DNA from: Patescibacteria group bacterium
GTDB taxonomy: Bacteria > Patescibacteriota > Minisyncoccia > Moranbacterales > GWC2-37-73
Direction: 5' to 3'
Length of the DNA stretch: 60,528 nt
Assembly (NCBI GenBank): GCA_036391995.1
Contig: DASVYU010000034.1
Coordinates: 1 to 60,528, forward strand
Notes under the pieces: model-generated
Database searches by the model: none
The model's input: the letters and a program-made list of their open reading frames with translations, nothing else
What the model was told of the DNA's origin: nothing
Position numbers and translations under genes: made by a program
Part shown: positions 116 to 13,224 of the stretch, piece after piece
How positions within the stretch are numbered: the stretch's first letter is position 1
How the letters are laid out: each line of letters starts with the position of its first letter

Positions 116-1567
116 ATGAAAACAATGAAAAAAAAGCCAGCAAGGAAGGTGCAGCAAAACCGCAACAGCAAAAGCGTTAAGAAAGTCGCGGTGAAAAAAG
201 CGCCAAAGAAATCCGCTTCCAAAAGCGTAGCAAAGAAGGCAACAAAAACTTCCAAATCTAAATCTTCTCAAGTGAAAAAAACAGTGAAACAGAAAGCACA
301 GAAAAAAGCAGCATCCAAAAAGGTGGCGCCAAAGAAAGTCGTTGTCTCAAAAAAGAAGGCAGCTGTCAAAAAAGAAGCTCCAAAGGCCAAGAAGCAGGAA
401 AAGAAAGCAGTTGCCAAGGCGCCAGTACAGAAAAAGAAAGTTGTTGAAATTCCTCAAGAAGAAACGCCTGAAAAGATCGATGTAGTGGCGGAGCTTATCG
501 AGCGCGGACGCGTGCGCGGCTTTGTTACTGAGGATGAGATCATCCATCTTATTCCGGAAGTGGAAGAGGAATTGGATGAGTTGGAAAATCTTTACGAGAA
601 ATTGGAAACGGCTGGTATCAAAGTCGTGATTTCCGACGACATGCTCAAGATCGAGGCTGACAAAGAAGTGGAAGCCTACGAGAAGAGCAAGAAGGACAAG
701 ACGACAGACATGATGATTTCGGAAAGCATCGAGGATAGCTCGTCTGATCTGGTGCAGATGTATCTTAGAGAAATCGGCCGCGTGCCACTGCTTAAATCCG
801 AAGAAGAAGTCAGACTGGCCAAGCTTAATGAAAAAGGAGATCTGATGGCCAAGCAGAAATTGACTGAAGCCAATCTTCGCTTGGTTGTAAGTATTGCCAA
901 GAAATATGTAGGCCGCTCACACAACCTTTCGCTTTTGGATCTCATTCAGGAAGGCAACATCGGTCTTTTCCGCGCCGTGGAAAAATTCGATTACAGAAAA
1001 GGTTACAAGTTCTCGACCTATGCCACTTGGTGGATCCGCCAAGCCATCACACGCGCCCTGGCTGACCAATCCAGAACGATCCGCATCCCAGTGCACATGG
1101 TGGAAACGATCAACAAATACACTCAGGTAACAAGAAGATTGGTGCAGGAATTGGGACGCGAGCCATTGCCGGAAGAAATCGCCGCTGAAATGAACATGGA
1201 AGTGGACAAGATCCGTCACATCCAGAAGATTTCCCAAGAAACCGTTTCTTTGGAAACTTCAGTGGGCGACAGCGATGATGACAGCGTGCTGGGAGATTTC
1301 ATTGAGGATACTGAAACTGTCATGCCTCACCAGGTCGCTTCCAGGAAACTCCTCAAAAATCATGTGGGCGAAGTGCTCAGAGAGCTTTCTCCGCGCGAGC
1401 AGAAGATCCTTAAGATACGTTTCGGATTGGAAGATGGTGTGACGCACACTCTGGAAGAAGTCGGCAAGGAATTCGGCGTGACGCGCGAGCGTATCCGTCA
1501 GATCGAAGCCAAAGCGCTCGACAAGATCCGCGCACATCAAGCGATCAGCAAGCTGAAGGATTACTAG
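116..1567 (+). CDS. rpoD: RNA polymerase primary sigma factor RpoD with long Lys/Ala-rich N-terminal extension
   Basis: Region 1.2 [11 protein letters not shown]; region 2 [13 protein letters not shown]...[10 protein letters not shown]...[17 protein letters not shown]; region 4 [21 protein letters not shown]. Confidence 0.97.
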
Positions 1568-1588: not shown

Positions 1589-1620
1589 AATAAAACACAT
1601 CCTCAAAGATGTGTTTTATT
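1589..1620. terminator. Bidirectional intrinsic terminator after rpoD
   Basis: 13-bp perfect stem AATAAAACACATC / GATGTGTTTTATT with 6-nt loop; ends 3 bp before the inferred left att junction. Confidence 0.8.
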
Positions 1621-1621
1621 A

Positions 1622-1714
1622 ATGCTCTCAGTCGTGGATGAAGTTAGAACCGCAATTCAAGAAACTACAGAGCATATCCACATACCAAATCTTACCCCAA
1701 AATCATTATCCTAG
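1622..1714 (+). other. Orphan 30-codon reading frame, probably the detached C-terminal tail of recombinase 1
   Basis: Reads (M)LSVVDEVRTAIQETTEHIHIPNLTPKSLS*; aligns with WLPIVDVFRR (7392) and WLRDQDSN (10627). Confidence 0.65.
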
Positions 1715-2019
1715 CCTTAACATTTTTCTACCACACAATTCTTTCCACATTTTTCAACCCTGTTTTTCGCACTCAGTATCTTACCCTTTCTTTTCAGTAT
1801 ATAAACTGTATCAAAATAACTGCTACATTAGCCCACACTTCTTCAGCCATAACTTTCTACACTTTTACAGGAAAACCCCCTGGACGCTCAAATATGACTT
1901 CCAGCAGTGTATCCTATGACGCTAACTGGGGTGCTTATGTTACCAACAATATCTTTTTTCAAATCTAAACCATTCGCTCCTATAACTGGTTGCCACCCTG
2001 CGACGATATAGACATACTG

Positions 2020-4383
2020 TTAGGATTCAATTTTGCCATTTTTCATTTTCACTGGTAAAGTTGTTTCCAGTTTTTCGTTGAAATTTCTGTCATGGCTGAT
2101 TGATATAAAGGTCACATCCGCATTTCTCTTTTTCTCCACGTTGATTATTTCAGCAATTTTCATGGCAGTTTTCTCATCAACTGAAGCGGTAGGCTCATCC
2201 AAAAAAACAATTCTGGAATTATTCTTCCTCATTTTAAGAATCGCTCGCGCCAATCCAATTCTTGATGTTTCTCCGCCTGAGGTTGTTCCAACATCTCCGC
2301 GACCCCCTTTTAACTTTTCATTCAGATTTGGAAACCTGTCGCTTAGACCCACTTCCTTCAATACTTCTCGAATCTCACTTTCCGAAACATCTCCCGAAAT
2401 TCCAAATACCAGATTTTTCTTGACCGTATCCTCAAGTATATATGGGAACTGTGAAAGGTAGGCTATTTTACTGTAAATCGAATCACTGCCACTCTTTTTT
2501 ATATTTTCCAGTTCAGTTCCACCAACCTCAACTGTTCCCTCAGTAGGTTTGTAGTATCCTGCCAATACTTTAAGTAGGGTGGTTTTCCCCGCACCTGACA
2601 ACCCCTCAAGCGACACCAATGAACCGCCTGGGATTTCCAAATTTATGTTGTCCAGTATCTTTTTATTATCAAATTCAACCCCTACATTTTGCAGCCGTAT
2701 ATCATTACCTTTCAGTTCACCCATTCCAACTCTATCTTTTTCTTTTTCCTTTTCTTCTTCGGCATATCCGTTGAACATCGTTTCCATTTGAACTATATCC
2801 CTAAACGAAGCCATCAAATCCCGCCTAGAACTCAGTATACTAGAAATACCCTGGTTGAAATTTCCCGAATAAAGCAGTGAGGCGATAAATTTATCGGAAG
2901 TTCCACCTGCAAAGTAGGTTGCAATTCCCGCAATTATGAAGTTCAGCATCTTTGTGGATTCCGCAACCTTGTTTCTGACAACTTTTATGAAAGTTTTGTC
3001 TGACATTGCCACCCGCTCTTTGGATAACAATTCTTCAATTTCATCGGCAAATTTTTCTTTTTCCCCTGAAAGTATGACCTCCATGTGAGCATTAAGGAGT
3101 TCTTCCATTTTTTGCGCCATTTTCTCTGCCTCATTTTCAGCCCTACTTTGTTTTTCCCAGAATTTACCCTTTTTGTGAACATACCTATCAATTATCATCA
3201 TGGCTCCCGCTCCTACGGCGGTTCCTGCTGCCAATACGGGACTTTTTTCGTAAAGCATGGCAGCACTTGTAGCCAAGGTGACAGTCGCAGGCAACACACT
3301 AAAACTTATCGTCCTCAGTATTTCCTCATAACTGGATTTTGCGTTGGCAATTCTACCCTTTATTCTCTCCATACCAAATTTACCCACTTCATCACCAGGG
3401 AATTCTGATATATTTTCTGACAAATAATCGGCATACCCTTCTTTTTTCTGAAAGTTCTGGTCGAGAAAATCCTTAAACTGTCTTTCAATCAATGCGGAGC
3501 CTCCAGCTGAAGCCGCTGAGAGTAGGGCAAACAGTCCTATTTGAGCCATTTCAATCTTGTCTCCCTTAAACGCATTAGCGAGAAACATTGGGGCGTATCC
3601 CTCCAAAAAAGCAGGAACCATCAGAGCGGCTGACAGGCCGACATATTTAGTTTTGTCGCCTGACATAAATCTTGAAAAAATATCCCTCACTTTTGATAAC
3701 ACCTTTATGTCATGGATTTCAAGACTATCCAATTTTTCTATATTACAAGTTTGTATCAATTCCTCGATTTCTTTCCGTTCAAATCCAGCCTGTTCATATT
3801 TTCCATACACTTTTTCCACCAATGCGCCCTTCTTTTCGTCCTTGGAATAAAAATTCAACTTTCTAGCCTGGTTTTCCTTGATGATTAAATCTTCTGCCTC
3901 TCCCACATTATTTCTGAATTGTGCGGCGTTGTGTGCCAATCTATATGAATCGAAATATGCACGCAATTCTTCAAACAGTTCTTTTTCAGCAGGTTCAATT
4001 TTTTCCACAGACTCATCATCAAAAACAACCACCATGTTCCCCTCGGGGTCTTCACTAAAACTTTCAATTTTTTTCGTATCTTTCCCATAGTGAGCCATGT
4101 CAAACATCAACTGCTTTATTTTCTGTTCAGTTTTTGTATCAATTCCATCCACATACTCGCTCGCTACGATTTTCCCTTTTATTTCTCTCCTTATTTCAAG
4201 CATGTCCAAAACCAGTTCTTTCGGTAGTTCTTCCGTGCCAAACATTTCCCTAACTGAACCTTTGACGGATTCTAAATATTGTTTTTTTGAATCCATTAAC
4301 TCACCCCTTTCGGTGCCTAGTTCTTTTTTGGGTTCTAGTTTTGGTTTTTCTGAAACAGGCATTGGCATATATTGCTCTTTCAT
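2020..4383 (-). CDS. ABC transporter, fused permease/ATPase, with about 240-aa acidic N-terminal extension
   Basis: Hydrophobic TM block; Walker A GLSGAGKTT; signature-like TSGGE; Walker B VFLDEPT; H-loop SHD. Confidence 0.88.
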   Translation of the reverse strand: MKEQYMPMPVSEKPKLEPKKELGTERGELMDSKKQYLESVKGSVREMFGTEELPKELVLDMLEIRREIKGKIVASEYVDGIDTKTEQKIKQLMFDMAHYGKDTKKIESFSEDPEGNMVVVFDDESVEKIEPAEKELFEELRAYFDSYRLAHNAAQFRNNVGEAEDLIIKENQARKLNFYSKDEKKGALVEKVYGKYEQAGFERKEIEELIQTCNIEKLDSLEIHDIKVLSKVRDIFSRFMSGDKTKYVGLSAALMVPAFLEGYAPMFLANAFKGDKIEMAQIGLFALLSAASAGGSALIERQFKDFLDQNFQKKEGYADYLSENISEFPGDEVGKFGMERIKGRIANAKSSYEEILRTISFSVLPATVTLATSAAMLYEKSPVLAAGTAVGAGAMMIIDRYVHKKGKFWEKQSRAENEAEKMAQKMEELLNAHMEVILSGEKEKFADEIEELLSKERVAMSDKTFIKVVRNKVAESTKMLNFIIAGIATYFAGGTSDKFIASLLYSGNFNQGISSILSSRRDLMASFRDIVQMETMFNGYAEEEKEKEKDRVGMGELKGNDIRLQNVGVEFDNKKILDNINLEIPGGSLVSLEGLSGAGKTTLLKVLAGYYKPTEGTVEVGGTELENIKKSGSDSIYSKIAYLSQFPYILEDTVKKNLVFGISGDVSESEIREVLKEVGLSDRFPNLNEKLKGGRGDVGTTSGGETSRIGLARAILKMRKNNSRIVFLDEPTASVDEKTAMKIAEIINVEKKRNADVTFISISHDRNFNEKLETTLPVKMKNGKIES

Positions 4384-4493
4384 ATAGTTTGCAGTGTATT
4401 ATATTATTTCCATTGTGCTATATAGTTCGTTTTGATATATTTAGTATATAAATTTACCTGTAAAATAGCAATGATTGCAGGGAAAACAAAAAC

Positions 4494-5321
4494 ATGGAAG
4501 AAAAAGACATTGAAGAACAGGCTGGCGATACCATGAAACTTATCCTGGACCAAATTTGGCTCCATTTTTTACAGTCGCGCCAGGGTAGTGATGAAACATG
4601 GTATGAACTTGTTGACCCTGAAAAAAATCCTGTGGCAGGCTCACATAACGAACAGGAAGGTCTTTTAGATAAAATTGAACACTGGAATCCTCCCATTATT
4701 CAAGGCAGAAAATACAATTCTGAAAAGAACAGGACGGAATTTACCATTGTCCACCCACATTTTGAAAAGTTTTACAAAACTTTTGCCAATCCGCGGGAAG
4801 CCTATGCAAGATACAGAATCGGAATGGTTATCCCTATTCAGCTTCCCGACGGAACTACCTGGGAGCATATCACGGTAAAATTCCTCAATGGCAATGATGT
4901 AAAAATTACTCTGCTCAATCACCCTGAATTTTCCCACCAAACTTCCTACAACGAAATGGGGTTCAGAAACAACAAGAATCAAGCCCCAAACAAGCAATGG
5001 GAACTTCTCCTAGCATTAGCACAAAACAGCGGTTCCATATTTTGGAGTAGCACTTCCAATCTCCCTCAGAAAATGATAAACAACCTCAAATCTCAGAAAA
5101 TGCTTTTGTCCAAGAAACTTGAGGCATATTTCCAACTCAAAGATGACCCATTTTTTGATTACAATACGCAAGACGGATACAAAATCAAAATGACACTTGT
5201 TCCAGAGAAAGCAGAGAGCAAAGCACCTAAGAGCAAAGATGATGACCTCGGCATAGTTGAAGCCTACAATGAGCAAGCAACTCAAGCCTGGGAGGATGAG
5301 CCTCGAGAGGAGCAATGGTAA
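4494..5321 (+). CDS. Hypothetical protein, possible C-terminal winged-helix DNA-binding domain
   Basis: 275-aa ORF; C-terminal KQWELLLALAQ...KMLLSKKLEAYF...GYKI resembles an OmpR-type wHTH by eye. Confidence 0.65.
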   Translation: MEEKDIEEQAGDTMKLILDQIWLHFLQSRQGSDETWYELVDPEKNPVAGSHNEQEGLLDKIEHWNPPIIQGRKYNSEKNRTEFTIVHPHFEKFYKTFANPREAYARYRIGMVIPIQLPDGTTWEHITVKFLNGNDVKITLLNHPEFSHQTSYNEMGFRNNKNQAPNKQWELLLALAQNSGSIFWSSTSNLPQKMINNLKSQKMLLSKKLEAYFQLKDDPFFDYNTQDGYKIKMTLVPEKAESKAPKSKDDDLGIVEAYNEQATQAWEDEPREEQW

Positions 5322-5363
5322 AATTTAGCCTTCGGTGAATTCACCCACCAATATTTTTTTCGC

Positions 5364-5390
5364 AAAAGCCTTTTTTCAAGGGCTTTTTTG
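5364..5390 (+). terminator. Intrinsic terminator
   Basis: AAAAGCC / GGCTTTT stem followed by a T tract after the 4494-5321 ORF. Confidence 0.55.
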
Positions 5391-5443
5391 TTTTTCTCAG
5401 TTATTTTTCACCATATAGAAATAGAGAACTAAACCCTATTTCT

Positions 5444-5722
5444 ATGCAACTAACTGACAAACAAATTGAAGATTTCCAACTTCTTTGGAAAAATCGCTTC
5501 GGCTATGACCTTCCTCGCAAAGAGGCTTTTGAGCAAGGAACTAAACTTGTCCGTCTTATGGAACTTATCTATCAGCCTATGACTGTTTCCGATTATGAGA
5601 TTATCCAGAAAATGCGTGCTGAAAGAATCAATAAGTCTGAAAGGCTAAACAACACAGAAAATTCCACAGGGGGCAGACAATATGTCGTAAAGCGTATCAA
5701 GTCGGGAGCAGAAAAACAGTGA
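5444..5722 (+). CDS. Small recombinase-associated hypothetical protein (92 aa)
   Basis: Directly upstream of recombinase 1; homologous by eye to 8780-8947. Confidence 0.75.
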   Translation: MQLTDKQIEDFQLLWKNRFGYDLPRKEAFEQGTKLVRLMELIYQPMTVSDYEIIQKMRAERINKSERLNNTENSTGGRQYVVKRIKSGAEKQ

Positions 5723-5795
5723 AATTATAGGTGTGAATAAGTGCCTAAATATGGCTTGTTTTAGCCAAATTATGTGATATACTCCATCCAAACAA

Positions 5796-7490
5796 ATGAA
5801 CGAAAACAACCAAAAAATAGGATATATTGTCTATACCAGGAAGTCCACGGAAGGTGATGAGAAACAGGCTTTGAGTATAGATAGCCAGAGGGAAAAAGCC
5901 ATGGAGATTTTTCCTGATTTGCGTATTGTCGATGTTGTGGAAGAAAAAAAGAGTGCGTTCACCCCATACAATCGCCCAGTTTTTGCTGAAATGCTAACAC
6001 GGATTAAGCGCGGAGAGGCGCAAGGTATCATTGCTTGGCATCCTGACAGACTTTCCCGCAATGAAATTGACGGCGGTTTGATTACTTTCATGCTTCGCCA
6101 AAAAGAAATTTTGGATTTGAAGTTCTGTTCCTATACTTTCGACAATTCTCCTGAAGGTATCATGTTTTTGCAACTAGCACTTTCGCAGTCTCAGTATTCT
6201 TCCGCTAAATTGAGCAAGGATGTGAAACGGGGTTTGGAAAAGAAGCTAAAAATGGGGTGGCTTCCTGGGGTTGCTCCGTCTGGATATTTGAACAATAAAC
6301 TGGCACAAAAAGGTGAAAAAGAAATACTGGTTGACCCTAACAGATTTCCCCTGATACGCAAAGCCTGGGATTTGCTTTTGACAGGCAGTTATACTGTCCC
6401 TCAAATTCTCTACAAACTAAACCACGAATGGGGTTATCGAACTATCAAGCGAACTAAAGAAGGTGGCAACCCCATGTCTCGCAGTGCTTTGTATAAAATT
6501 TTCACTAATAGTTTCTACGCTGGACCCTTCGAATACAGCGGTAAGATATATCAGGGTAAGCACGACCCCATGATAACACTCGAAGAATTTGACCATGCTC
6601 AAATCATACTTGGCCGCAGTGGAAAACCTCGACCACAAAAATACTCATTTTCTTTTTCTGGAACTTTTCGTTGTGCTGAATGTGGTTGCTTGTATGTGGC
6701 TGAAAAAAAGCACAAGGTTATCAAAGGCACTGGCGAAGTCCGTTCCTATATCTATTATCATTGTTCCCATTCTAAGCCAAATTATCGTTGCTCTCAGCGT
6801 TCAAGTATAACGCAAGAGAGACTAGAACTATTAGTATCTACGGAATTAGAAAACTGGACAATTCTTCCTGAATTCAGACAGTGGGCTGTAGACGCTCTAA
6901 GTAGCTCACATAAGAAAGAGGTTGAGGCTAGGAGCAAGATATATGAAACTCTACACAAAGAACTTGTATCCCTTCAGTCAAAAGAGGATAAATTGATTGA
7001 TATGCGTTGTTCAGGACTCATTGATGACGACAAATACACGGAAAGAGCCGCTGAAATGCAAAAGAGAAAGAAAGAGGTGCAGGAACTACTACGCGACACT
7101 GAGAATCGTGCTGACAAGTGGGTTGCTCTCACTGAAAAGACTTTTGATTTCGTCACCTATGCTCTTCAGTCTTTCGTTTCTGGCGACGCTCAAATTAAAA
7201 AGGAGATTATATTAGCTCTATCATCGAACCAGAAAATAAAGGACGGAAAACTCTTTGTTTCAGCTAACAAATGGTTGCAGCCTATTGGAAACAGCTATCC
7301 TGCCCTCAAAGAAGAATATCTTACACTAGAACCGCTGGAAACAGTATCAAATAAAGCAAAAACGGAGGCTTTGGATGCTCTCCGTCTACGATGGCTCCCA
7401 ATAGTTGATGTATTCAGAAGGCTTGGACAAAGGAAAATGGAAGAATCGTTTGCAATCTTGGAAATGAATTTTGCTCAATATGCCATATAG
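5796..7490 (+). CDS. Large serine recombinase 1 (resolvase + recombinase + zinc ribbon + coiled coil)
   Basis: Catalytic YTRKST; HPDRLSRN; alpha-E LSKDVKRGL; zinc ribbon CAECG...YYHC. Confidence 0.95.
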   Translation: MNENNQKIGYIVYTRKSTEGDEKQALSIDSQREKAMEIFPDLRIVDVVEEKKSAFTPYNRPVFAEMLTRIKRGEAQGIIAWHPDRLSRNEIDGGLITFMLRQKEILDLKFCSYTFDNSPEGIMFLQLALSQSQYSSAKLSKDVKRGLEKKLKMGWLPGVAPSGYLNNKLAQKGEKEILVDPNRFPLIRKAWDLLLTGSYTVPQILYKLNHEWGYRTIKRTKEGGNPMSRSALYKIFTNSFYAGPFEYSGKIYQGKHDPMITLEEFDHAQIILGRSGKPRPQKYSFSFSGTFRCAECGCLYVAEKKHKVIKGTGEVRSYIYYHCSHSKPNYRCSQRSSITQERLELLVSTELENWTILPEFRQWAVDALSSSHKKEVEARSKIYETLHKELVSLQSKEDKLIDMRCSGLIDDDKYTERAAEMQKRKKEVQELLRDTENRADKWVALTEKTFDFVTYALQSFVSGDAQIKKEIILALSSNQKIKDGKLFVSANKWLQPIGNSYPALKEEYLTLEPLETVSNKAKTEALDALRLRWLPIVDVFRRLGQRKMEESFAILEMNFAQYAI

Positions 7491-7589
7491 AGCCTGCTCT
7501 ACTTATAAAAATATAGATATGAAATTTATAAAAAAAGTCGCCACAGGTTTCCCTAATGACGACTTGAAGGTCTTTGACTGCCAACTTCG

Positions 7590-8153
7590 TTATTCAACGA
7601 TTTCAACAGTCGGACATATTTTTTGCTTCTTAGCTTTTGCGAATTCAACAAACATCTTGTATGTTTCCGATTTTTTTACAGCTTTCGTCATACAGAGGAG
7701 TATTACAAACACCGCAACGCCTGCCACCCAGCTCCAAAAAAATCCTGAGAAGACAGTGTGCTTTGCAATGCCCACAATGGTTGACCTTCCCACCATCATC
7801 GTGTCTTTTGGGTTAAAAAGGATGAAAGCCACAGCCACCCCGTATATAGGGTATACTCTCCAGCCTTTTATCGTGGGCCACTTGTCATAAGGAATGAGTG
7901 AATCACCTTTGTAGTCACCCTTGAATACTGGTGGCCTGTGCGCTATCCAAAAACCCAAAGTATAGCCGATGGCGGGAAAGAAGATATAGAAAATAAAATG
8001 TATCGCGCAGTAGGCAATTCCTACAATAGGCCAGCCAATGAAAAACATAAGCAAAAAACGCCAGAACAGTTTGCACAGATTTGTTTTTCTTGGACACCCA
8101 CCTGACAATCCATACGCAACCTTGTAAACGAAGCCCTCTTTCTTTATTTTCAT
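7590..8153 (-). CDS. Hypothetical membrane protein (probable start 8153, MKIKKEG)
   Basis: SD AAAGGAG upstream of ATG 8153; several hydrophobic segments; cargo of element 2. Confidence 0.75.
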   Translation of the reverse strand: MKIKKEGFVYKVAYGLSGGCPRKTNLCKLFWRFLLMFFIGWPIVGIAYCAIHFIFYIFFPAIGYTLGFWIAHRPPVFKGDYKGDSLIPYDKWPTIKGWRVYPIYGVAVAFILFNPKDTMMVGRSTIVGIAKHTVFSGFFWSWVAGVAVFVILLCMTKAVKKSETYKMFVEFAKAKKQKICPTVEIVE

Positions 8154-8779
8154 AATCTGCTCCTTTCCGCCAAAGGCGAGTTTGATTTTGTAGCTACAGT
8201 AAAGCAAAAATGGAAGCGAATTGTCAAATAAACTGATGTTTGAGTATACATCCATTTTATAAAATTGTCAAGTATTGAAAATGGCTGAAATAAGCCTTTT
8301 TCAAAAAGTATATCAACAATGAGCAACAGTTTTGGCAAATTTTTTGCACAAAGCAGCTTCTTTTATGTAAAAAATGGCTTATGTAAAGCATTTCATTATC
8401 TTTCAGTGCATAAAATAGGTGCAAAATGATGAGAAAAATGTTGCTCATTCGCACTTTTGCGCTGTTCATTCGTGCTCATTCAGGGTTTATAGGGATTTTT
8501 TGACCACAAATGTCGGTTATTTCAAAAAGGGTGGCAACCTTTACAAGAGGGTCATTTCCTGCTATCATAGGGTATAGTAATTAAGCCAATTTCATAAGTT
8601 TTGGAGAACACTTGGCGTAAATCCAGGAAACAGATAGGCTCTTGAGCCAAATATCCAGCCCTGCAGTAGCTGAGGATAACAAAGCGAACGTATCATCAAC
8701 TTTAGGTTGAGGGCTTTTGTTATCATTTTTCCAAAATTCATATCTCAGAAACCAGCAACCTCAAAGTTCGCTGGTTTTT

Positions 8780-8947
8780 ATGTTATTTGATGAAAAGATA
8801 TTTTATGAAAAATTAAGCAAAAAAGAACTTTCAGGGCAGGAAGTTTTTGCAGCCAAGAGTAACTTGGTCGGCTTTTTTGATTTGCTCTACCAAATTGACA
8901 AGAAAAAGAAGGAGGATAAATCTTCAAGTTCAGCAGGCTCTACATAA
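8780..8947 (+). CDS. Small recombinase-associated protein (55 aa from ATG 8780; 76 aa from TTG 8717)
   Basis: ELSGQEVFAAKSNLVGFFDLLYQ aligns with DLPRKEAFEQGTKLVRLMELIYQ of 5444-5722. Confidence 0.7.
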   Translation: MLFDEKIFYEKLSKKELSGQEVFAAKSNLVGFFDLLYQIDKKKKEDKSSSSAGST

Positions 8948-8995
8948 TAAAAACTTGGAACGGCAGTAGAAAATAATTTTATAAATTCCAAAACA

Positions 8996-9181
8996 ATGAG
9001 TAAAGAGCAACCAATGATAAAATCCAAAAAGGAATTAGAGGCGGCAATAATGGAACTACTAAACGACTATTACAGACTTGAAATTTCAGGAAGAATAAAA
9101 AGAGGCTTGGCTAAGCGAAAAATAGTTTTAGAAAACGCCAAAAGGTCATATAATACACGCAACATTAAGACCAAAAAATGA
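8996..9181 (+). CDS. 61-aa peptide resembling the serine-recombinase alpha-E helix
   Basis: YYRLEISGRIKRGLAKR matches YSSAKLSKDVKRGLEKK of recombinase 1; ATGA overlap with the start of recombinase 2. Confidence 0.7.
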   Translation: MSKEQPMIKSKKELEAAIMELLNDYYRLEISGRIKRGLAKRKIVLENAKRSYNTRNIKTKK

Positions 9182-10668
9182 AAGCGATATTGTTGGCAAG
9201 AGTCTCGGACAAAAAACAAGACTCCAATGAAGCACAAGTTTCCAAAGTGTCAGAATATGCAAAAATCAAAAGCCTGGAAACTTGGAAGACATATGAACTG
9301 GAAGAATCTTCCACCAGAGGCGACAGGAAGAGGTTTCAGGAAATAATCAGGGACATTGAAAATTCAAAAGAACCCGTAGCCTTAGTGGTGGACACAGTAG
9401 ATAGGCTTCAGCGAAGTTTCAAGGATTCAATTATTTTGGATGACTTCAGAAAAGCTGGAAAGCTGGAAATACACTTTTGTCGTGAAAATCTAGTCCTACA
9501 CAAAGATTCAAATAGTTCTGATTTGCTTCGCTGGGATATGGCGGTTATGTTTGCTAGAAGCTATGTCCTCCAGCTTAGCGACAATGTCAAAAGAAAAATT
9601 GACCAAAAGCTAAGAAACAAAGAATGGATAGGACAAGCGTATGTAGGATATAAAAACATAACGCTGACTGACGGAAGCAAAGATGTCGTGCCAGACGAAG
9701 ACAGAGCACATCACATTCAGAAGATGTTTGAAATGTATGCCACGGGAGGATATTCAATGAAGCAATTATCAAAAGAAATGTATGCCAAAGGACTTAGGAG
9801 CAGAAGCGGGGTTAAGGTATCCACAAGTCAGATTCACAATATGCTGCGAAATCCATTTTACTATGGTCAGATGAAAGTCAAAGGAAAGCTATATGACCAT
9901 AAGTATAGACCTCTCATCCAAAAACTTCTTTTTGACAAAGTGCAGGACACAATCAATGGCTATAATAGACAAAATTTCAAAAGGAGCAATAAGCCTTATG
10001 TTTTCAGGGGACTCATAAAATGCTCCCACTGCGGTTGTTCCATAACTCCAGAGCTTCAAAAGGAATATGTCTATTATCACTGCACGAACTTTCACGGCAA
10101 TTGCCCCAACAAAAAAGTCTGGCTCAGAGAAAAGGATTTGCTGGAACAAATAAAAGTCGTGTTTCAGAGCTTGAAGCTAGAGCCTGACGCACTTGAAAAA
10201 TTGAAGGGCGAGCTAAGAGCCGCGCACGCATCAGAAAAAGAATACTATGAGCAAAACATCAATGGACTCAAAAGACAGTTGGGACAAATTGATTCCAAGC
10301 TCAAGATTATGTATAACGACAGATTGGTTGGAAGAATTACAACTGACGAATATGATGAGTTGGTCAAAGGCTATAAAGAGGAACAGCAAGACCTCCTCCG
10401 CCAATATGAGGAACATTCTGAGGCTGATAAAAATTTCTACATTACAGCCAACAAAGTATTAGACTTAACTCAGAGGGCTTGGGAGCTATTTGAAAATTCT
10501 GAACCAAAAGAAAAAACCCAACTAGTGAGTTTTCTACTTCAGAACCTTTCGCTAGAAGGGAGAAACCTTTTATTTGAGGTTAAAACTCCCTTCAATGGCA
10601 TAGTGGAATATGCCAAAACTAAAGAATGGCTCCGCGACCAGGATTCGAACCTGGAACCAATTGGTTAA
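9178..10668 (+). CDS. Large serine recombinase 2; last 13 codons are antisense to tRNA-Asn
   Basis: Catalytic ARVS; TVDRLQRS; LSDNVKR; zinc ribbon CSHCG...YYHC...C; ends WLRDQDSNLEPIG* inside the tRNA. Confidence 0.95.
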   Translation: MKAILLARVSDKKQDSNEAQVSKVSEYAKIKSLETWKTYELEESSTRGDRKRFQEIIRDIENSKEPVALVVDTVDRLQRSFKDSIILDDFRKAGKLEIHFCRENLVLHKDSNSSDLLRWDMAVMFARSYVLQLSDNVKRKIDQKLRNKEWIGQAYVGYKNITLTDGSKDVVPDEDRAHHIQKMFEMYATGGYSMKQLSKEMYAKGLRSRSGVKVSTSQIHNMLRNPFYYGQMKVKGKLYDHKYRPLIQKLLFDKVQDTINGYNRQNFKRSNKPYVFRGLIKCSHCGCSITPELQKEYVYYHCTNFHGNCPNKKVWLREKDLLEQIKVVFQSLKLEPDALEKLKGELRAAHASEKEYYEQNINGLKRQLGQIDSKLKIMYNDRLVGRITTDEYDELVKGYKEEQQDLLRQYEEHSEADKNFYITANKVLDLTQRAWELFENSEPKEKTQLVSFLLQNLSLEGRNLLFEVKTPFNGIVEYAKTKEWLRDQDSNLEPIG

Positions 10669-10701
10669 CAGCCAACTGCTCTACCGTTGAGCTATCGCGG
10701 A
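10627..10701 (-). tRNA. tRNA-Asn (GTT), CCA encoded
   Basis: TCCGCGATAGCTCAACGGTAGAGCAGTTGGCTGTTAACCAATTGGTTCCAGGTTCGAATCCTGGTCGCGGAGCCA folds into a full cloverleaf. Confidence 0.97.
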
Positions 10702-10875
10702 ATATGTAGTTTTCAAAAAATTGCCTTTTCAAGCAACAAAAACAGTATAGCAGAAGCTTTTTTGCTTGGCAAGGGCAAAATGATTGACTATGAGCATTGA
10801 CAAATAGCATTCGGAGTGCTATTTTTGTTTGTTGTTTAAAAATACTGAGCTGACGAGCCAAAACATGGAGGGCTT

Positions 10876-11172
10876 ATGCCTGGTAGTGCTGACAATGCAA
10901 CGCTTCGTAGAGTATTTGGCTATGTGGAGATGCCTGCCACAATTGAACAGCTTGAGGATAGTGCATCTCCTGCCTTTATGGGTATGGTATCTCGAGTAAT
11001 ATATACGAGATTGGGCAATGGTGTTATTAAAGACGGAGATGCATTCTGGATATCTGAGGAAGTTCTTGCTGAAGGCATTGCCTATTGGGAAGAGGATCTC
11101 AAAAAAACACAGCGGTATCTTGATTATTTGAAGGCGCAACGAGATAAACTTGAGTTGCGCAATGTCAAGTAG
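10876..11172 (+). CDS. Hypothetical protein (98 aa)
   Basis: SD GGAGG upstream; protein-like composition; downstream hairpin. Confidence 0.7.
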   Translation: MPGSADNATLRRVFGYVEMPATIEQLEDSASPAFMGMVSRVIYTRLGNGVIKDGDAFWISEEVLAEGIAYWEEDLKKTQRYLDYLKAQRDKLELRNVK

Positions 11173-11373
11173 TTTGACAGCCCACCACGGAAAACCTTCC
11201 GTCTCGGTGGGTTTTCTGTTTTTGGATAAGACATGTAATAAAGCATGTTAAGCGGTTGTATCAATGGTATGCAAATGGAAGCTAAAGGCGGGAGAGCCTA
11301 ATTATTTTTTTCAGGATCGGCTATTGCAATTGCTTTATATAATATGCACATAGGGCCGGTATCCCTCGATTAT

Positions 11374-13224
11374 ATGCCCAAAAAAATCAAAAGACAGCAA
11401 AAAAACAGCATCGTCCCAAAGACGGTTTTATTTACTGTTCTGCTTCTGCTTGCAGCTTATTTTGTTTATCACTCCGTCCGTCCAGTTCGAGATTTTGTAG
11501 ATTATCGCTTTGCTGTCATGTTTTCAAAAAAAATCAACAAGCCTTCGGGGGACACGAAGTTCTCTCAAAATCAGAATCAGATGCAAAGCGGGGCAGCAAA
11601 CATGGCTTCTTCGGAAGCGTATCTTGCCGAAAATACCAATGCTTCTGTGCAACGCGAATTCAAACATGACCAGCTGGATCCCCAAAGCTTGCAGAAATTC
11701 GTTGATCCTCTGCCGTTGCCGAGCGTTTTGAAACCGACCGGGCAAATGGGCGGGAAAGATTATTATGAAATTTCCATGAGTGAAGCCAAGCAGAAACTGC
11801 ATCGCGATATGCCAGAGACGACCATATGGGGTTATAATGGGCTTTTCCCTGGACCGACCATCGAGGCTCGCAGCGGAGTACCGATCAAAGTAAAGTGGCT
11901 GAACAATCTTCCTTACAAGCATTTTCTTCCTATAGATACTTCCGTAGATGGCGCTGAAAATCCTAATGACCCACAAGTCAGGACAGTCATCCATTTGCAT
12001 GGAGGGCACGTGCCTCCTGAAAGCGATGGGTATCCTATGGATTGGTTCGCTTCAGGTGGTTCTTCGTCTGTTATTGATTATCCCAACAATCAAGCGTCTT
12101 CAATGCTTTGGTATCATGATCATGCTATGGGAATCACGCGTCTCAATGTAGAAGCTGGCTTGGAAGGCTTGTATTTCATACGTGATTCCGTGGAAGAAAG
12201 CATGAATCTGCCCAGGGGTGATTACGAAGTTCCGCTTGTCATTCAGGACAGATCTTTCAACAAAGACGGATCGCTAGATTATCCTTCTGAGGGCAGTGGC
12301 AGCATGCAGACTAGTTCTTCAAAGATCGCGGCAGAAATGCCTAAACCTTCGATCGTGCCGGAGTTTTTTGGAGATTTCAATCTGGTAAATGGAAAGATGT
12401 GGCCGTTTTTGGAAGTAGAGCCTCGCAAATATCGCTTCAGGATTTTGAATGGTTCCAATGCACGTTTTTATGATATAAATCTTTCCAATGGCGCATCATT
12501 CTATCAGATCGGAAGCGAGGCTGGCTTTCTTAGCGCACCAGTGAAGGTCAATAGATTATTGCTTGCTCCTGCTGAGCGTGCAGATGTGATAATTGATTTC
12601 AGCAAATTCAAAGGTGCCGCAATAACCCTCAATAATGACGCATCGGCGCCGTATCCATCCGGTAGCAAGGTTGATGCAAACACTGGCAAAATCATGCGGT
12701 TCGTTGTCAAAAAAACGCTCACCGGAAACGATTCAAGTGTGTTGCCGCAAGCATTGCCCGCAGTTGAGAGATTGCAAGAAAAAGATGCTGTGACAGAAAG
12801 GAATATAGCGCTTATAGAAAAAACTGACAATTTCGGGCGTCTAATGTTGACGATCGATGGTAAGCGTTGGAATGATCAAGCTACGGAGACGCCGAAATTA
12901 GGAACGACTGAGATATGGAACATAATAAACACCACGCCTGATACGCATCCGATCCATCTGCATCTGGACTATTTCCAGATATTGGACAGGCGCTCATTCA
13001 ATGTTGCTCAATATGATAAGACGGGCAAAGTCATATTCACTGGAAAGGCTAGAAAACCGGATCCTAACGAAGCTGATTGGAAAGACACATTCAGAGCCAA
13101 TCCGGGGGAAGTTTCAAGGATAATCGTGCGTTTCACGGATTATTCAGGGAGATATTTGTGGCATTGCCACATTCTGGAGCATGAGGAATATGAAATGATG
13201 CGTCCGCTTGAAATAATGCCTTGA
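11374..13224 (+). CDS. Multicopper oxidase (CotA/bilirubin oxidase-like) with N-terminal membrane anchor; start may be 11344
   Basis: All four Cu motifs: HLHG, WYHDH, HPIHLH, HCHILEHEEYEM. Confidence 0.93.
   Translation: MPKKIKRQQKNSIVPKTVLFTVLLLLAAYFVYHSVRPVRDFVDYRFAVMFSKKINKPSGDTKFSQNQNQMQSGAANMASSEAYLAENTNASVQREFKHDQLDPQSLQKFVDPLPLPSVLKPTGQMGGKDYYEISMSEAKQKLHRDMPETTIWGYNGLFPGPTIEARSGVPIKVKWLNNLPYKHFLPIDTSVDGAENPNDPQVRTVIHLHGGHVPPESDGYPMDWFASGGSSSVIDYPNNQASSMLWYHDHAMGITRLNVEAGLEGLYFIRDSVEESMNLPRGDYEVPLVIQDRSFNKDGSLDYPSEGSGSMQTSSSKIAAEMPKPSIVPEFFGDFNLVNGKMWPFLEVEPRKYRFRILNGSNARFYDINLSNGASFYQIGSEAGFLSAPVKVNRLLLAPAERADVIIDFSKFKGAAITLNNDASAPYPSGSKVDANTGKIMRFVVKKTLTGNDSSVLPQALPAVERLQEKDAVTERNIALIEKTDNFGRLMLTIDGKRWNDQATETPKLGTTEIWNIINTTPDTHPIHLHLDYFQILDRRSFNVAQYDKTGKVIFTGKARKPDPNEADWKDTFRANPGEVSRIIVRFTDYSGRYLWHCHILEHEEYEMMRPLEIMP

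Follow-up and report, generated by a model that had tools for sequence, protein, structure and literature searches.

Tandem serine integrase elements at a tRNA-Asn gene, with attachment sites that very probably lie inside their own integrase genes

The stretch of DNA analysed here (the window) covers 60,528 nucleotides of contig DASVYU010000034.1 from a Patescibacteria group bacterium, and at the 3' end of a tRNA-Asn gene its positions 1624–10632 are two integrative elements arranged head to tail in tandem. Each element encodes a large serine recombinase (LSR), LSR1 in element 1 and LSR2 in element 2. We put at about 85% the probability of the account set out below, namely that these are tandem LSR elements at tRNA-Asn whose attachment site in the free form (attP) lies inside their own LSR gene, and that the enzyme's C-terminal tail is moved away from that gene on integration.

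According to this account each element would have been inserted by its own LSR. In the free circle attP would fall within the final ~30 codons of the LSR gene. Its P arm would code for the protein as far as Trp-Leu (TGG CTC) and its P' arm for the start of the C-terminal tail, and the crossover would take place in the core GCTC, which corresponds to tRNA positions 71–74. Through integration the tail would end up at the opposite end of the element, as an orphan frame at attL, and the LSR would be fused to the sequence on the right of the core, either the antisense tRNA (LSR2) or the tail of the next element (LSR1). Each insertion or excision would rewrite the last 10–30 amino acids of the integrase. 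The features concerned are the following, with the supporting evidence in brackets.

1589..1620, no strand: hairpin between rpoD and the original 3' end of tRNA-Asn; host B arm of attB and attL (folding)
1624..1627, forward strand: core GCTC of junction J1, the attL of element 1, made up of the host B arm and the P'1 arm (empty-site joint; X9 contig)
1625..1714, forward strand: orphan C-terminal tail of LSR1, LSVVDEVRTAIQETTEHIHIPNLTPKSLS, then stop (tail profile match; attL tail of L085)
1624..7393, forward strand: element 1, 5,770 bp (empty site, attP of L001, contig break points)
5796..7490, forward strand: LSR1, 564 aa; native part 5796–7394, codons from 7395 supplied by element 2 (Pfam)
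7394..7397, forward strand: core GCTC of junction J2, the P arm of element 1 joined to the P' arm of element 2 (attP of L001; X5 contig)
7395..7490, forward strand: free-form tail of LSR2, now fused to LSR1, LPIVDVFRRLGQRKMEESFAILEMNFAQYAI, then stop (family-2 tail profile; P0013/L001; L086 at 5178)
7394..10628, forward strand: element 2, 3,235 bp, with a membrane protein, small open reading frames (ORFs) and LSR2 (empty site, attP of L001)
9178..10668, forward strand: LSR2, 496 aa; native part ends at TGG 10627–10629 (Pfam)
10629..10632, forward strand: core GCTC of junction J3, the attR, made up of the P arm of element 2 and the B' arm of the tRNA (tRNA positions 71–74)
10627..10701, reverse strand: tRNA-Asn(GTT), the integration target, with CCA encoded (ARAGORN)

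Both recombinases have the Resolvase, Recombinase and Zn_ribbon_recom domains in that order (Pfam PF00239, PF07508 and PF13408). An earlier note, made by reading the letters of the window, had described three junctions that share GCTC in one register, and this is exactly how the sequence reads at 1624–1627, 7394–7397 and 10629–10632. J1 is ATG CTC TCA GTC GTG GAT from 1622; J2 is TGG CTC CCA ATA GTT GAT from 7392; and J3 is TGG CTC CGC GAC CAG GAT from 10627, the 3' end of tRNA-Asn(GTT). The final 13 codons of LSR2, LRDQDSNLEPIG and stop, are the acceptor and T arms of tRNA-Asn read in antisense. The block of identity is 4 nt (GCTC) between J1 and J3 and 8 nt between J2 and J3, with 5–8 nt at other loci. 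The same note had placed the orphan frame at J1 3 bp after the rpoD terminator. As to position this holds, J1 starting 3 nt past the hairpin at 1589–1620; the hairpin itself is stable on folding (13-bp stem, dG -14.2 kcal/mol, z -6.5), but it was not called by a consensus terminator scan, and we describe it as terminator-like, for both of the converging genes, rpoD and tRNA-Asn.

The region is present in four soil-metagenome runs (X1–X4), all from a single study. In X3 one contig joins position 1623 to position 10629 and omits 9,005 bases, which is both elements together, with the four letters GCTC fitting either side. The sequence obtained, ...TTATTAAT[GCTC]CGCGACC..., is the empty site that had been predicted, and the joint falls exactly at the cores. 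An assembly chimera arising from a 4-nt overlap is excluded because k was 31. X3 also holds the occupied form, at a depth of ~4–7, and both states therefore coexist there. At the empty site the tRNA gene runs ...GGAGC and then ATTAAT, so that CCA is not encoded (...GGAGC, ATT), in agreement with the proposal that the element supplies CCA through its TGG codon; more precisely, the CA of CCA (10627–10628) is derived from the element, whereas C74 (10629) lies within GCTC and belongs to the empty site as well. In contigs of relatives from other runs, similarity to the window begins or ends at 1623, 7398 and 10634, the X9 contig starting at 1623 and the X5 contig ending at 7398.

Orphan tails were then sought with profiles. 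The family-1 profile was made from 20 free-form tails of LSR1 homologues and was searched against the six-frame translation of all fetched loci. The frame at 1625–1696 matched it with 38.3 bits (E 4e-9), which upholds the claimed similarity of the 1622–1714 frame to recombinase C-termini. It was among the top two matches; the strongest, at 41.1 bits, was the orthologous orphan tail of a related locus, L085, to whose attL tail the J1 tail has a 76% nucleotide match. The family-2 profile matched 7395–7487 with 39.5 bits (E 1.7e-9), a score that is partly circular since the window's own 7395 tail was among the 16 sequences from which the profile was built; the tails of L001 and L086 provide independent support for it. 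Taken together, the two profiles gave 37 matches (E < 0.01) across 174 loci, all of them on the strand of the LSR and 0 on the other, and about 20 of the 37 are orphan tails lying 5–10 kb upstream of LSRs that are joined to a tRNA, the J1 tail of the window included.

Circularisation between J2 and J3 was expected to give an LSR2 that ends in KEWLPIVDVFRRLGQRKMEESFAILEMNFAQYAI. The same arrangement occurs uninterrupted in L001, a 6.3-kb contig that is circular (27-nt terminal overlap) and in which a 545-aa ORF closes across the ends. The recombinase of L001, P0013, is 61% identical to LSR2 and ends in KEWLPIVYMFRRLELKKMEESLEILKLSLSQYAI, the tail type that in the window is carried by LSR1, and its gene reads aactccctttaacggcatagtagaatatgccaaaactaaagaatg followed directly by GCTCCCGATAGTTTATATGTTCAGAAGGCTTGAA, which are the arm to the left of J3 and the arm to the right of J2 in continuous form. 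Since L001 carries these two arms without interruption, element 2 is therefore the integrated form of an element with attP inside its integrase gene, and the suggestion that recombinase 1 carries the tail of element 2 is confirmed by the presence of that tail on the LSR2-type gene of L001. A 6-nt inverted repeat in L001, AAACTA/TAGTTT, is centred on the G of GCTC. Three of the five free-form contigs from Logan that were tested are circular (L001, L171 and L173; 6.1–8.6 kb), with exact 30-nt (k-1) terminal overlaps in L171 (6.1 kb) and L173 (8.6 kb).

For element 1 the corresponding product, of J1 with J2, would be an LSR1 ending in RWLSVVDEVRTAIQETTEHIHIPNLTPKSLS. Homologues of LSR1 end either in antisense tRNA, as RWLRGQDSNLQPID or WRRRWDSNPQ, or in a free form of the type W-x6-V-R-T ... 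xIxIPxL, and it is this second type, exemplified by P0210 (RWLSIVDRVRTAIQEANCYIHISNINAV) and P0171 (DWRSIVEDVRTAIVNHKGHIYIPKLSLE, ...IYIPKLSLE), that the predicted ending matches. L085 contains a single 5.7-kb element of the element-1 type, with the core genes at 48%, 66% and 80% identity and an orphan tail after a hairpin at attL. Its recombinase, P0122, is the 80% identical orthologue of LSR1; it has the same Trp-Leu and from there reads into tRNA-Asn. In L086, a related genome, a single LSR2-type element occupies the same rpoD/tRNA-Asn locus, and an LSR2-type orphan tail comes directly after the rpoD terminator.

In L085 the anticodon loop of the target tRNA-Asn (11596–12223) is interrupted by a group I intron that itself contains a 108-aa ORF; the intron match is at 11645–11886 on the minus strand (Rfam RF00028, 60.2 bits). 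LSR frames that run into such introns consequently have endings of the form ...EPIDYTYPKVSxRGGLY (P0008, P0016, P0076, P0092, P0122, L092, L094 and L107).

The spread of the layout was examined in the top 240 homologues, 120 for each LSR family, and in 160 related loci. Among the candidates that were scored in the protein collection, each query had more than 2,000 matches at E <= 0.001, distant LSRs included, and the hosts are mostly candidate-phyla (Patescibacteria) bacteria, with other phyla represented too. Tails were classed by their register after the junction residue (J): tRNA-type tails have [DEG][SL]N at J+5, free-form tails have [VFI]R[TRN] at J+7, and very short tails stop within five residues of J. 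Family 2 comprised 54 tRNA-type, 40 very short, 13 free-form and 13 other tails, and family 1 comprised 80, 12, 19 and 9, respectively. The two classes of C-terminus that had been anticipated, tRNA-derived and free-form, are thus both found in both families; over the homologues and related loci the conserved free-form peptides amount to 13–16%, and relatives with this layout number in the hundreds. The LSR stop codon lies in or beside an antisense tRNA at 49 of 80 reference-genome loci, where the tRNAs are those for Asn, His, Ser, Gln, Asp, Trp, Gly, Tyr, Ile, Leu, Lys, Glu and Arg, and at 44 of 80 family-2 metagenome loci, where it is mostly tRNA-Asn. attL and attR share only the last bases of the tRNA, GCTC(C) for Asn, GCTGGG for Gln, GATGGGGT for His and GCACG for Trp, and the host-side B arm, downstream of each tRNA, varies between loci and is not conserved. 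Contigs longer than 25 kb account for 2 of 33 with free-form tails versus 39 of 133 with tRNA-type tails (p = 0.006). Tandem arrays are found elsewhere too: L038 has two LSRs, the first with a free-type tail and the one after it at tRNA-Asn, and in L102 a family-2 LSR with a family-1 tail lies upstream of a family-1 LSR, mirroring the window.

Additional orphan tails, in tandem or downstream of an LSR and without an LSR of their own, are found in L024 (330–410), L003 (3780–3851), L112 (5369 and 6975) and L086 (5178–5255); they resemble remnants, left either by earlier insertions or by elements whose integrase was lost. Seven loci with an LSR beside a tRNA (L008, L009, L019, L020, L030, L046 and L054) are in bins labelled Gammaproteobacteria, Klebsiella or archaeon, which may reflect mis-binning or a host range wider than candidate-phyla bacteria. 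An origin from phages was considered and rejected, as a scan of IMG/VR with the family-2 profile returned 4 weak matches and the elements contain no phage structural genes.

The zinc-ribbon domain of LSRs binds a motif whose distance from the crossover is 5 bp greater in attP than in attB (PMC3783163). In tRNA tails, Ser-Asn is TCG AAC at J+6/7, and in free tails Arg-Thr is AGA ACN at J+8/9, preceded by GTT or TTC, with a TTCGAAC-like sequence that begins 5 nt later than in tRNA tails. This 5-nt shift in register holds in 32 free-form and 134 tRNA-type tails. Most simply, the first ~9 codons of the tail would be the P' half-site, a shifted copy of TTCGAAC of the tRNA T arm; within these codons the putative P'1 half-site in the J1 tail contains GTTAGAAC and the putative P'2 half-site in the J2 tail contains TTCAGAA. 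When codons were analysed with the VRT and IP motifs as anchors, the eight codons ending in VRT had a proportion of synonymous differences (pS) of 0.58 and of nonsynonymous differences (pN) of 0.34, synonymous change being held down, and the seven distal codons of xIxIPxL had a pS of 0.90 and a pN of 0.23, with synonymous sites saturated and amino acids kept. These statistics, low pS in the proximal part and low pN in the distal part, indicate that the tail is both a DNA site and a peptide found only in the episomal gene, and from codon use we infer that the distal part (xIxIPxL in family 1) is a genuine peptide module, which the enzyme has in its episomal form only.

An AlphaFold model of the free-form homologue P0171 has a mean predicted local distance difference test score (pLDDT) of 87.8, with 85 and 80 for the two tail blocks. 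In this model, which is of a homologue and not of the window proteins, the coiled-coil helices span 351–398 and 404–454, and the last helix, 517–543, passes through the junction residue Trp530. Foldseek matched it to SPbeta-type, phiC31 and Bxb1 integrase structures (E 2e-17 to 5e-12), and to LI integrase structures also. No ssrA-like or other degradation-tag-like ending was evident in the tails, which end in ...QYAI or ...IPNLTPKSLS. The tail motif finishes ...IPDL, IPDF, IPKL or IPNL (e.g. L012 1217–1285 and L002 4460–4534), with 1–8 residues following it in most cases. The C-terminal tip of the single-stranded DNA-binding protein SSB is DDDIPF; in most tails the similar motif is not at the very C-terminus, and the likeness may be due to chance.

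A number of observations weigh against the account of tandem elements with attP inside the LSR gene, or limit its detail. The empty-site contig in X3 has a depth of 3 and a shorter side of 26 nt, and it may represent a strain that was never occupied rather than a product of excision. The crossover is placed to the 4-nt GCTC and not to a dinucleotide within it. For the order of events we infer that element 1 was inserted first and element 2 then entered the tRNA half-site of element 1's attR; that an occupied site offers only the tRNA half-site would matter little because the host-side B arm is not conserved. The P arms showed no clear T-arm-like mirror of the P' motif that would make the zinc-ribbon motif symmetric. 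L043, L047, L063, L078 and L083 have free-form-tail LSRs (10001–11600) on long chromosomal contigs of 123 kb–1.6 Mb, with no tRNA and no second LSR within 10 kb downstream; their hosts are Abditibacteria, Omnitrophota, Acidobacteriota and others. Finally, neither circle junctions nor single-element forms of the window's own elements were seen in the assembled contigs of eight runs, a result that says little either way since such contigs drop rare variants. The predicted sequences are:

Circle 1 junction: CTACGATGGCTCTCAGTCG
Circle 2 junction: AAAGAATGGCTCCCAATAG
Junction left by element 1 excised alone: TTATTAATGCTCCCAATAG
Junction left by element 2 excised alone: CTACGATGGCTCCGCGACC

What the exchange of tails does for the elements is a separate matter. 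Part of the proposed mechanism is that the tail would support an integration-competent enzyme, that its loss would leave an intact but altered integrase, and that excision would restore the full gene; this is our best guess, held tentatively at roughly one chance in three. The fact that most database copies (some 80%) lack a free-form tail and are still intact, full-length ORFs counts against it, and fits better with the explanation to which we give nearly, though not quite, even odds, that the anatomy is real and the swap has no function, attP overlapping the 3' end of the gene through compactness and the tail being dispensable. The tails acquired on integration are indeed arbitrary, being antisense tRNA, two or three residues, or antisense group I intron; constraint at the DNA level alone can account for the first ~9 tail codons; and ordinary recombination directionality factors (RDFs) could be what the conserved small ORFs ahead of the LSRs encode. 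Less easily explained in this way are xIxIPxL, which lies 50–70 bp from the core, beyond an LSR half-site, and is conserved as amino acids, the open frames that orphan tails keep in many genomes, and the modelling of the tail as a continuation of the last helix at a pLDDT of 80–88. That the tail has been kept although it is lost in every integrated copy, together with the conservation of the peptide, would favour some episome-specific role.

Such a role might be that of a built-in switch, in which the tailed episomal enzyme and the tail-less chromosomal enzyme differ in directionality, activity or half-life and the RDF is partly or wholly replaced. This is possible but, on balance, unlikely. 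It is suggested by peptide-level selection on a module that is present only in the episomal gene, and by the expectation that attP would lie downstream of the stop codon were the tail needed in both states. The junction falls inside the last helix of a C-terminal extension that comes after the coiled coil and the zinc ribbon, the directionality apparatus of LSRs, and element 2, at only 3.2 kb, has few candidate accessory genes. Set against this, the two LSR families have different tail sequences, no ending that resembles a degradation tag is evident, and candidate small accessory proteins exist. It is with similar reserve that we would call the tail an episome-only regulatory module through which the state of the DNA sets the form of the enzyme and gives RDF-independent or RDF-assisting directionality. 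To our knowledge, no directionality logic of this kind is known for serine integrases.

Suicidal integration of the SSV type, where the enzyme would become inactive once its tail is lost and the elements could no longer leave the chromosome, appears improbable. Integration does remove the native C-terminus, and relic tails pile up at L024, L003/L004, L112 and L086 (5178), but the exchange affects only 10–30 residues past the last domain and leaves intact the catalytic, recombinase and zinc-ribbon domains, orphan tails are mostly open and conserved, and empty and occupied sites are found in one sample with identical flanks. The remaining idea, that GCTC and the orphan frame are coincidental and that there is a single island, or that the present C-terminus of LSR1 is native, can be dismissed: a 4-mer recurs many times by chance in 9 kb, but the two profile matches (E 4e-9 and 1.7e-9), the lack of any such match on the opposite strand, the empty-site joint exactly at the cores, the continuous attP of L001 and the reading of P0122 into tRNA-Asn from the same Trp-Leu together refute it.

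The other genes of the two elements, and the host gene on the left flank, are as follows.

116..1567, forward strand: rpoD (sigma-70), host gene of the left flank (Pfam Sigma70 regions 1.1–4)
2020..4383, reverse strand: cargo of element 1, a 787-aa ATPase with ABC_tran/SMC_N (Pfam; PADLOC mad3 and mad8; PHROG 2392)
4494..5321, forward strand: 275-aa conserved core protein of element 1 (48% identity to L085_256; no family match in Pfam, PADLOC or PHROGs)
5444..5722, forward strand: 92-aa small protein upstream of LSR1 (66% identity to L085_66)
7590..8255, reverse strand: cargo of element 2, a 221-aa predicted membrane protein (PHROG 944, membrane protein, E 1e-7)
8717..8947, forward strand: 76-aa conserved small protein of element 2 (65% identity to L001_84)
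8996..9181, forward strand: 61-aa lysine-rich ORF that overlaps the start of LSR2 by 4 nt (ORF list; no family match in Pfam, PADLOC or PHROGs)

Element 1 consists of a core module, formed by the 275-aa and 92-aa proteins and LSR1, and of the ABC/SMC-type ATPase as cargo. The ATPase weakly matches PADLOC models for MADS (mad3, E 1e-19; mad8, E 3e-9) and may be a defence-type gene; the cargo of relatives includes a nucleotidyltransferase-like protein, SocA_Panacea, a Y-family polymerase, SRAP, a methyltransferase and Mrr. Of the seven cargo genes and small ORFs, five (those of 275, 92, 70, 76 and 61 aa) had no match in PADLOC, PHROGs or Pfam. The 76-aa protein weakly matches L085_66, the orthologue of the 92-aa protein (E 0.005), which makes the similarity of the two types indirect, and both are candidate accessory factors (RDF or regulator). 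In rpoD, a lysine- and alanine-rich N-terminal extension of ~120 residues (116–480) precedes region 1.1. Contig 13 of X2 carries a second rpoD variant, which differs from the window at 37 of 390 nt over positions 1213–1602 and ceases to resemble it at 1602, inside the hairpin. This suggests that the sample also holds a related strain whose downstream region is different.

The layout has practical consequences. In about four out of five database entries for these enzymes the C-terminus is foreign, either chimeric or tRNA-encoded, and when LSRs are mined for editing tools the wrong protein would be synthesised unless the orphan tail at attL is rejoined. Conversely, the orphan tail marks attL, and with it boundaries and att sites become readable from sequence. 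Should it be true that the C-terminal extension modulates LSR directionality or stability, the elements would contain a self-contained switch of interest for synthetic biology. In the full-text literature we found no LSR with attP inside its own gene and no tRNA-targeting LSR elements in candidate-phyla bacteria, although subscription journals were thinly covered and absence is not proof.

Among known systems, those nearest to this layout are the SSV-type tyrosine integrases and the phages of the BPs type. Archaeal tyrosine integrases of the SSV1 type have attP inside int and are known as 'suicidal' integrases (PMC7253208, PMC8371274). As here, the recombination site is in the integrase ORF, the target is a tRNA and integration alters the integrase gene. 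The chemistry of SSV int is however that of tyrosine recombinases, its gene is split into two inactive parts and the block of identity is long, whereas the window has serine recombinase domains and integrated ORFs of full length (496 and 564 aa), only the last 10–30 codons being exchanged, across a core of 4–8 bp. Islands of the Islander/TIGER type also target tRNA genes (PMC4383910). They too insert at the tRNA 3' end, regenerate the tRNA, form tandem arrays and leave a displaced fragment at the far end, and an intact tRNA-Asn (ARAGORN), an empty-site contig and circular relatives were all found for the present elements. In contrast, those islands have tyrosine integrases, identity blocks of tens of bp and a tRNA fragment as the far-end marker, the counterpart of which here is the orphan integrase tail. 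With an identity block of only 4–8 bp, repeat-based island finders would therefore miss the boundaries of these elements.

In the mycobacteriophages BPs, Brujita and Charlie, which show integration-dependent immunity, attP lies in the 3' end of the repressor gene and a tyrosine integrase removes an ssrA-like tag from the repressor. Common to both systems are an attP in the 3' end of a gene and the replacement of C-terminal residues on integration, giving two forms of a protein. The gene in question is a repressor with an ssrA-like tag in the phages, whereas here attP appears to cross the gene of the serine integrase itself and the predicted tails have no evident tag-like ending. In SCCmec, Ccr serine recombinases insert the cassette at the 3' end of rlmH (orfX), and the att site is outside the ccr gene. 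As in the window, LSR-family enzymes place small cassettes where a conserved gene has its 3' end, and tandem composite arrays are built up, and one homologue, P0003, was named 'cassette chromosome recombinase B' by its source; the differences are the target, a tRNA in place of rlmH (orfX), and the location of attP inside the LSR gene.

Also close are the LSRs of phiC31, Bxb1, A118/LI and SPbeta, which have the same order of domains, the same fold and short att sites with few identical bases at the crossover. The putative zinc-ribbon motif also appears to lie 5 bp further out in attP than in attB, as in LSRs of the phiC31/Bxb1 type. Canonical LSRs, however, target a protein-coding gene, while the elements described here are non-phage episomes of 3–10 kb that target the 3' end of a tRNA, one of their attB half-sites, that downstream of the tRNA, is not conserved, and attP lies inside the integrase's own coding sequence, with the result that the protein differs between the episomal and the integrated state. 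In every testable respect the system is a serine integrase; it differs from the textbook LSRs of genome engineering, and what is unusual in it is the combination of a tRNA 3'-end target with an attP inside the integrase's own reading frame.

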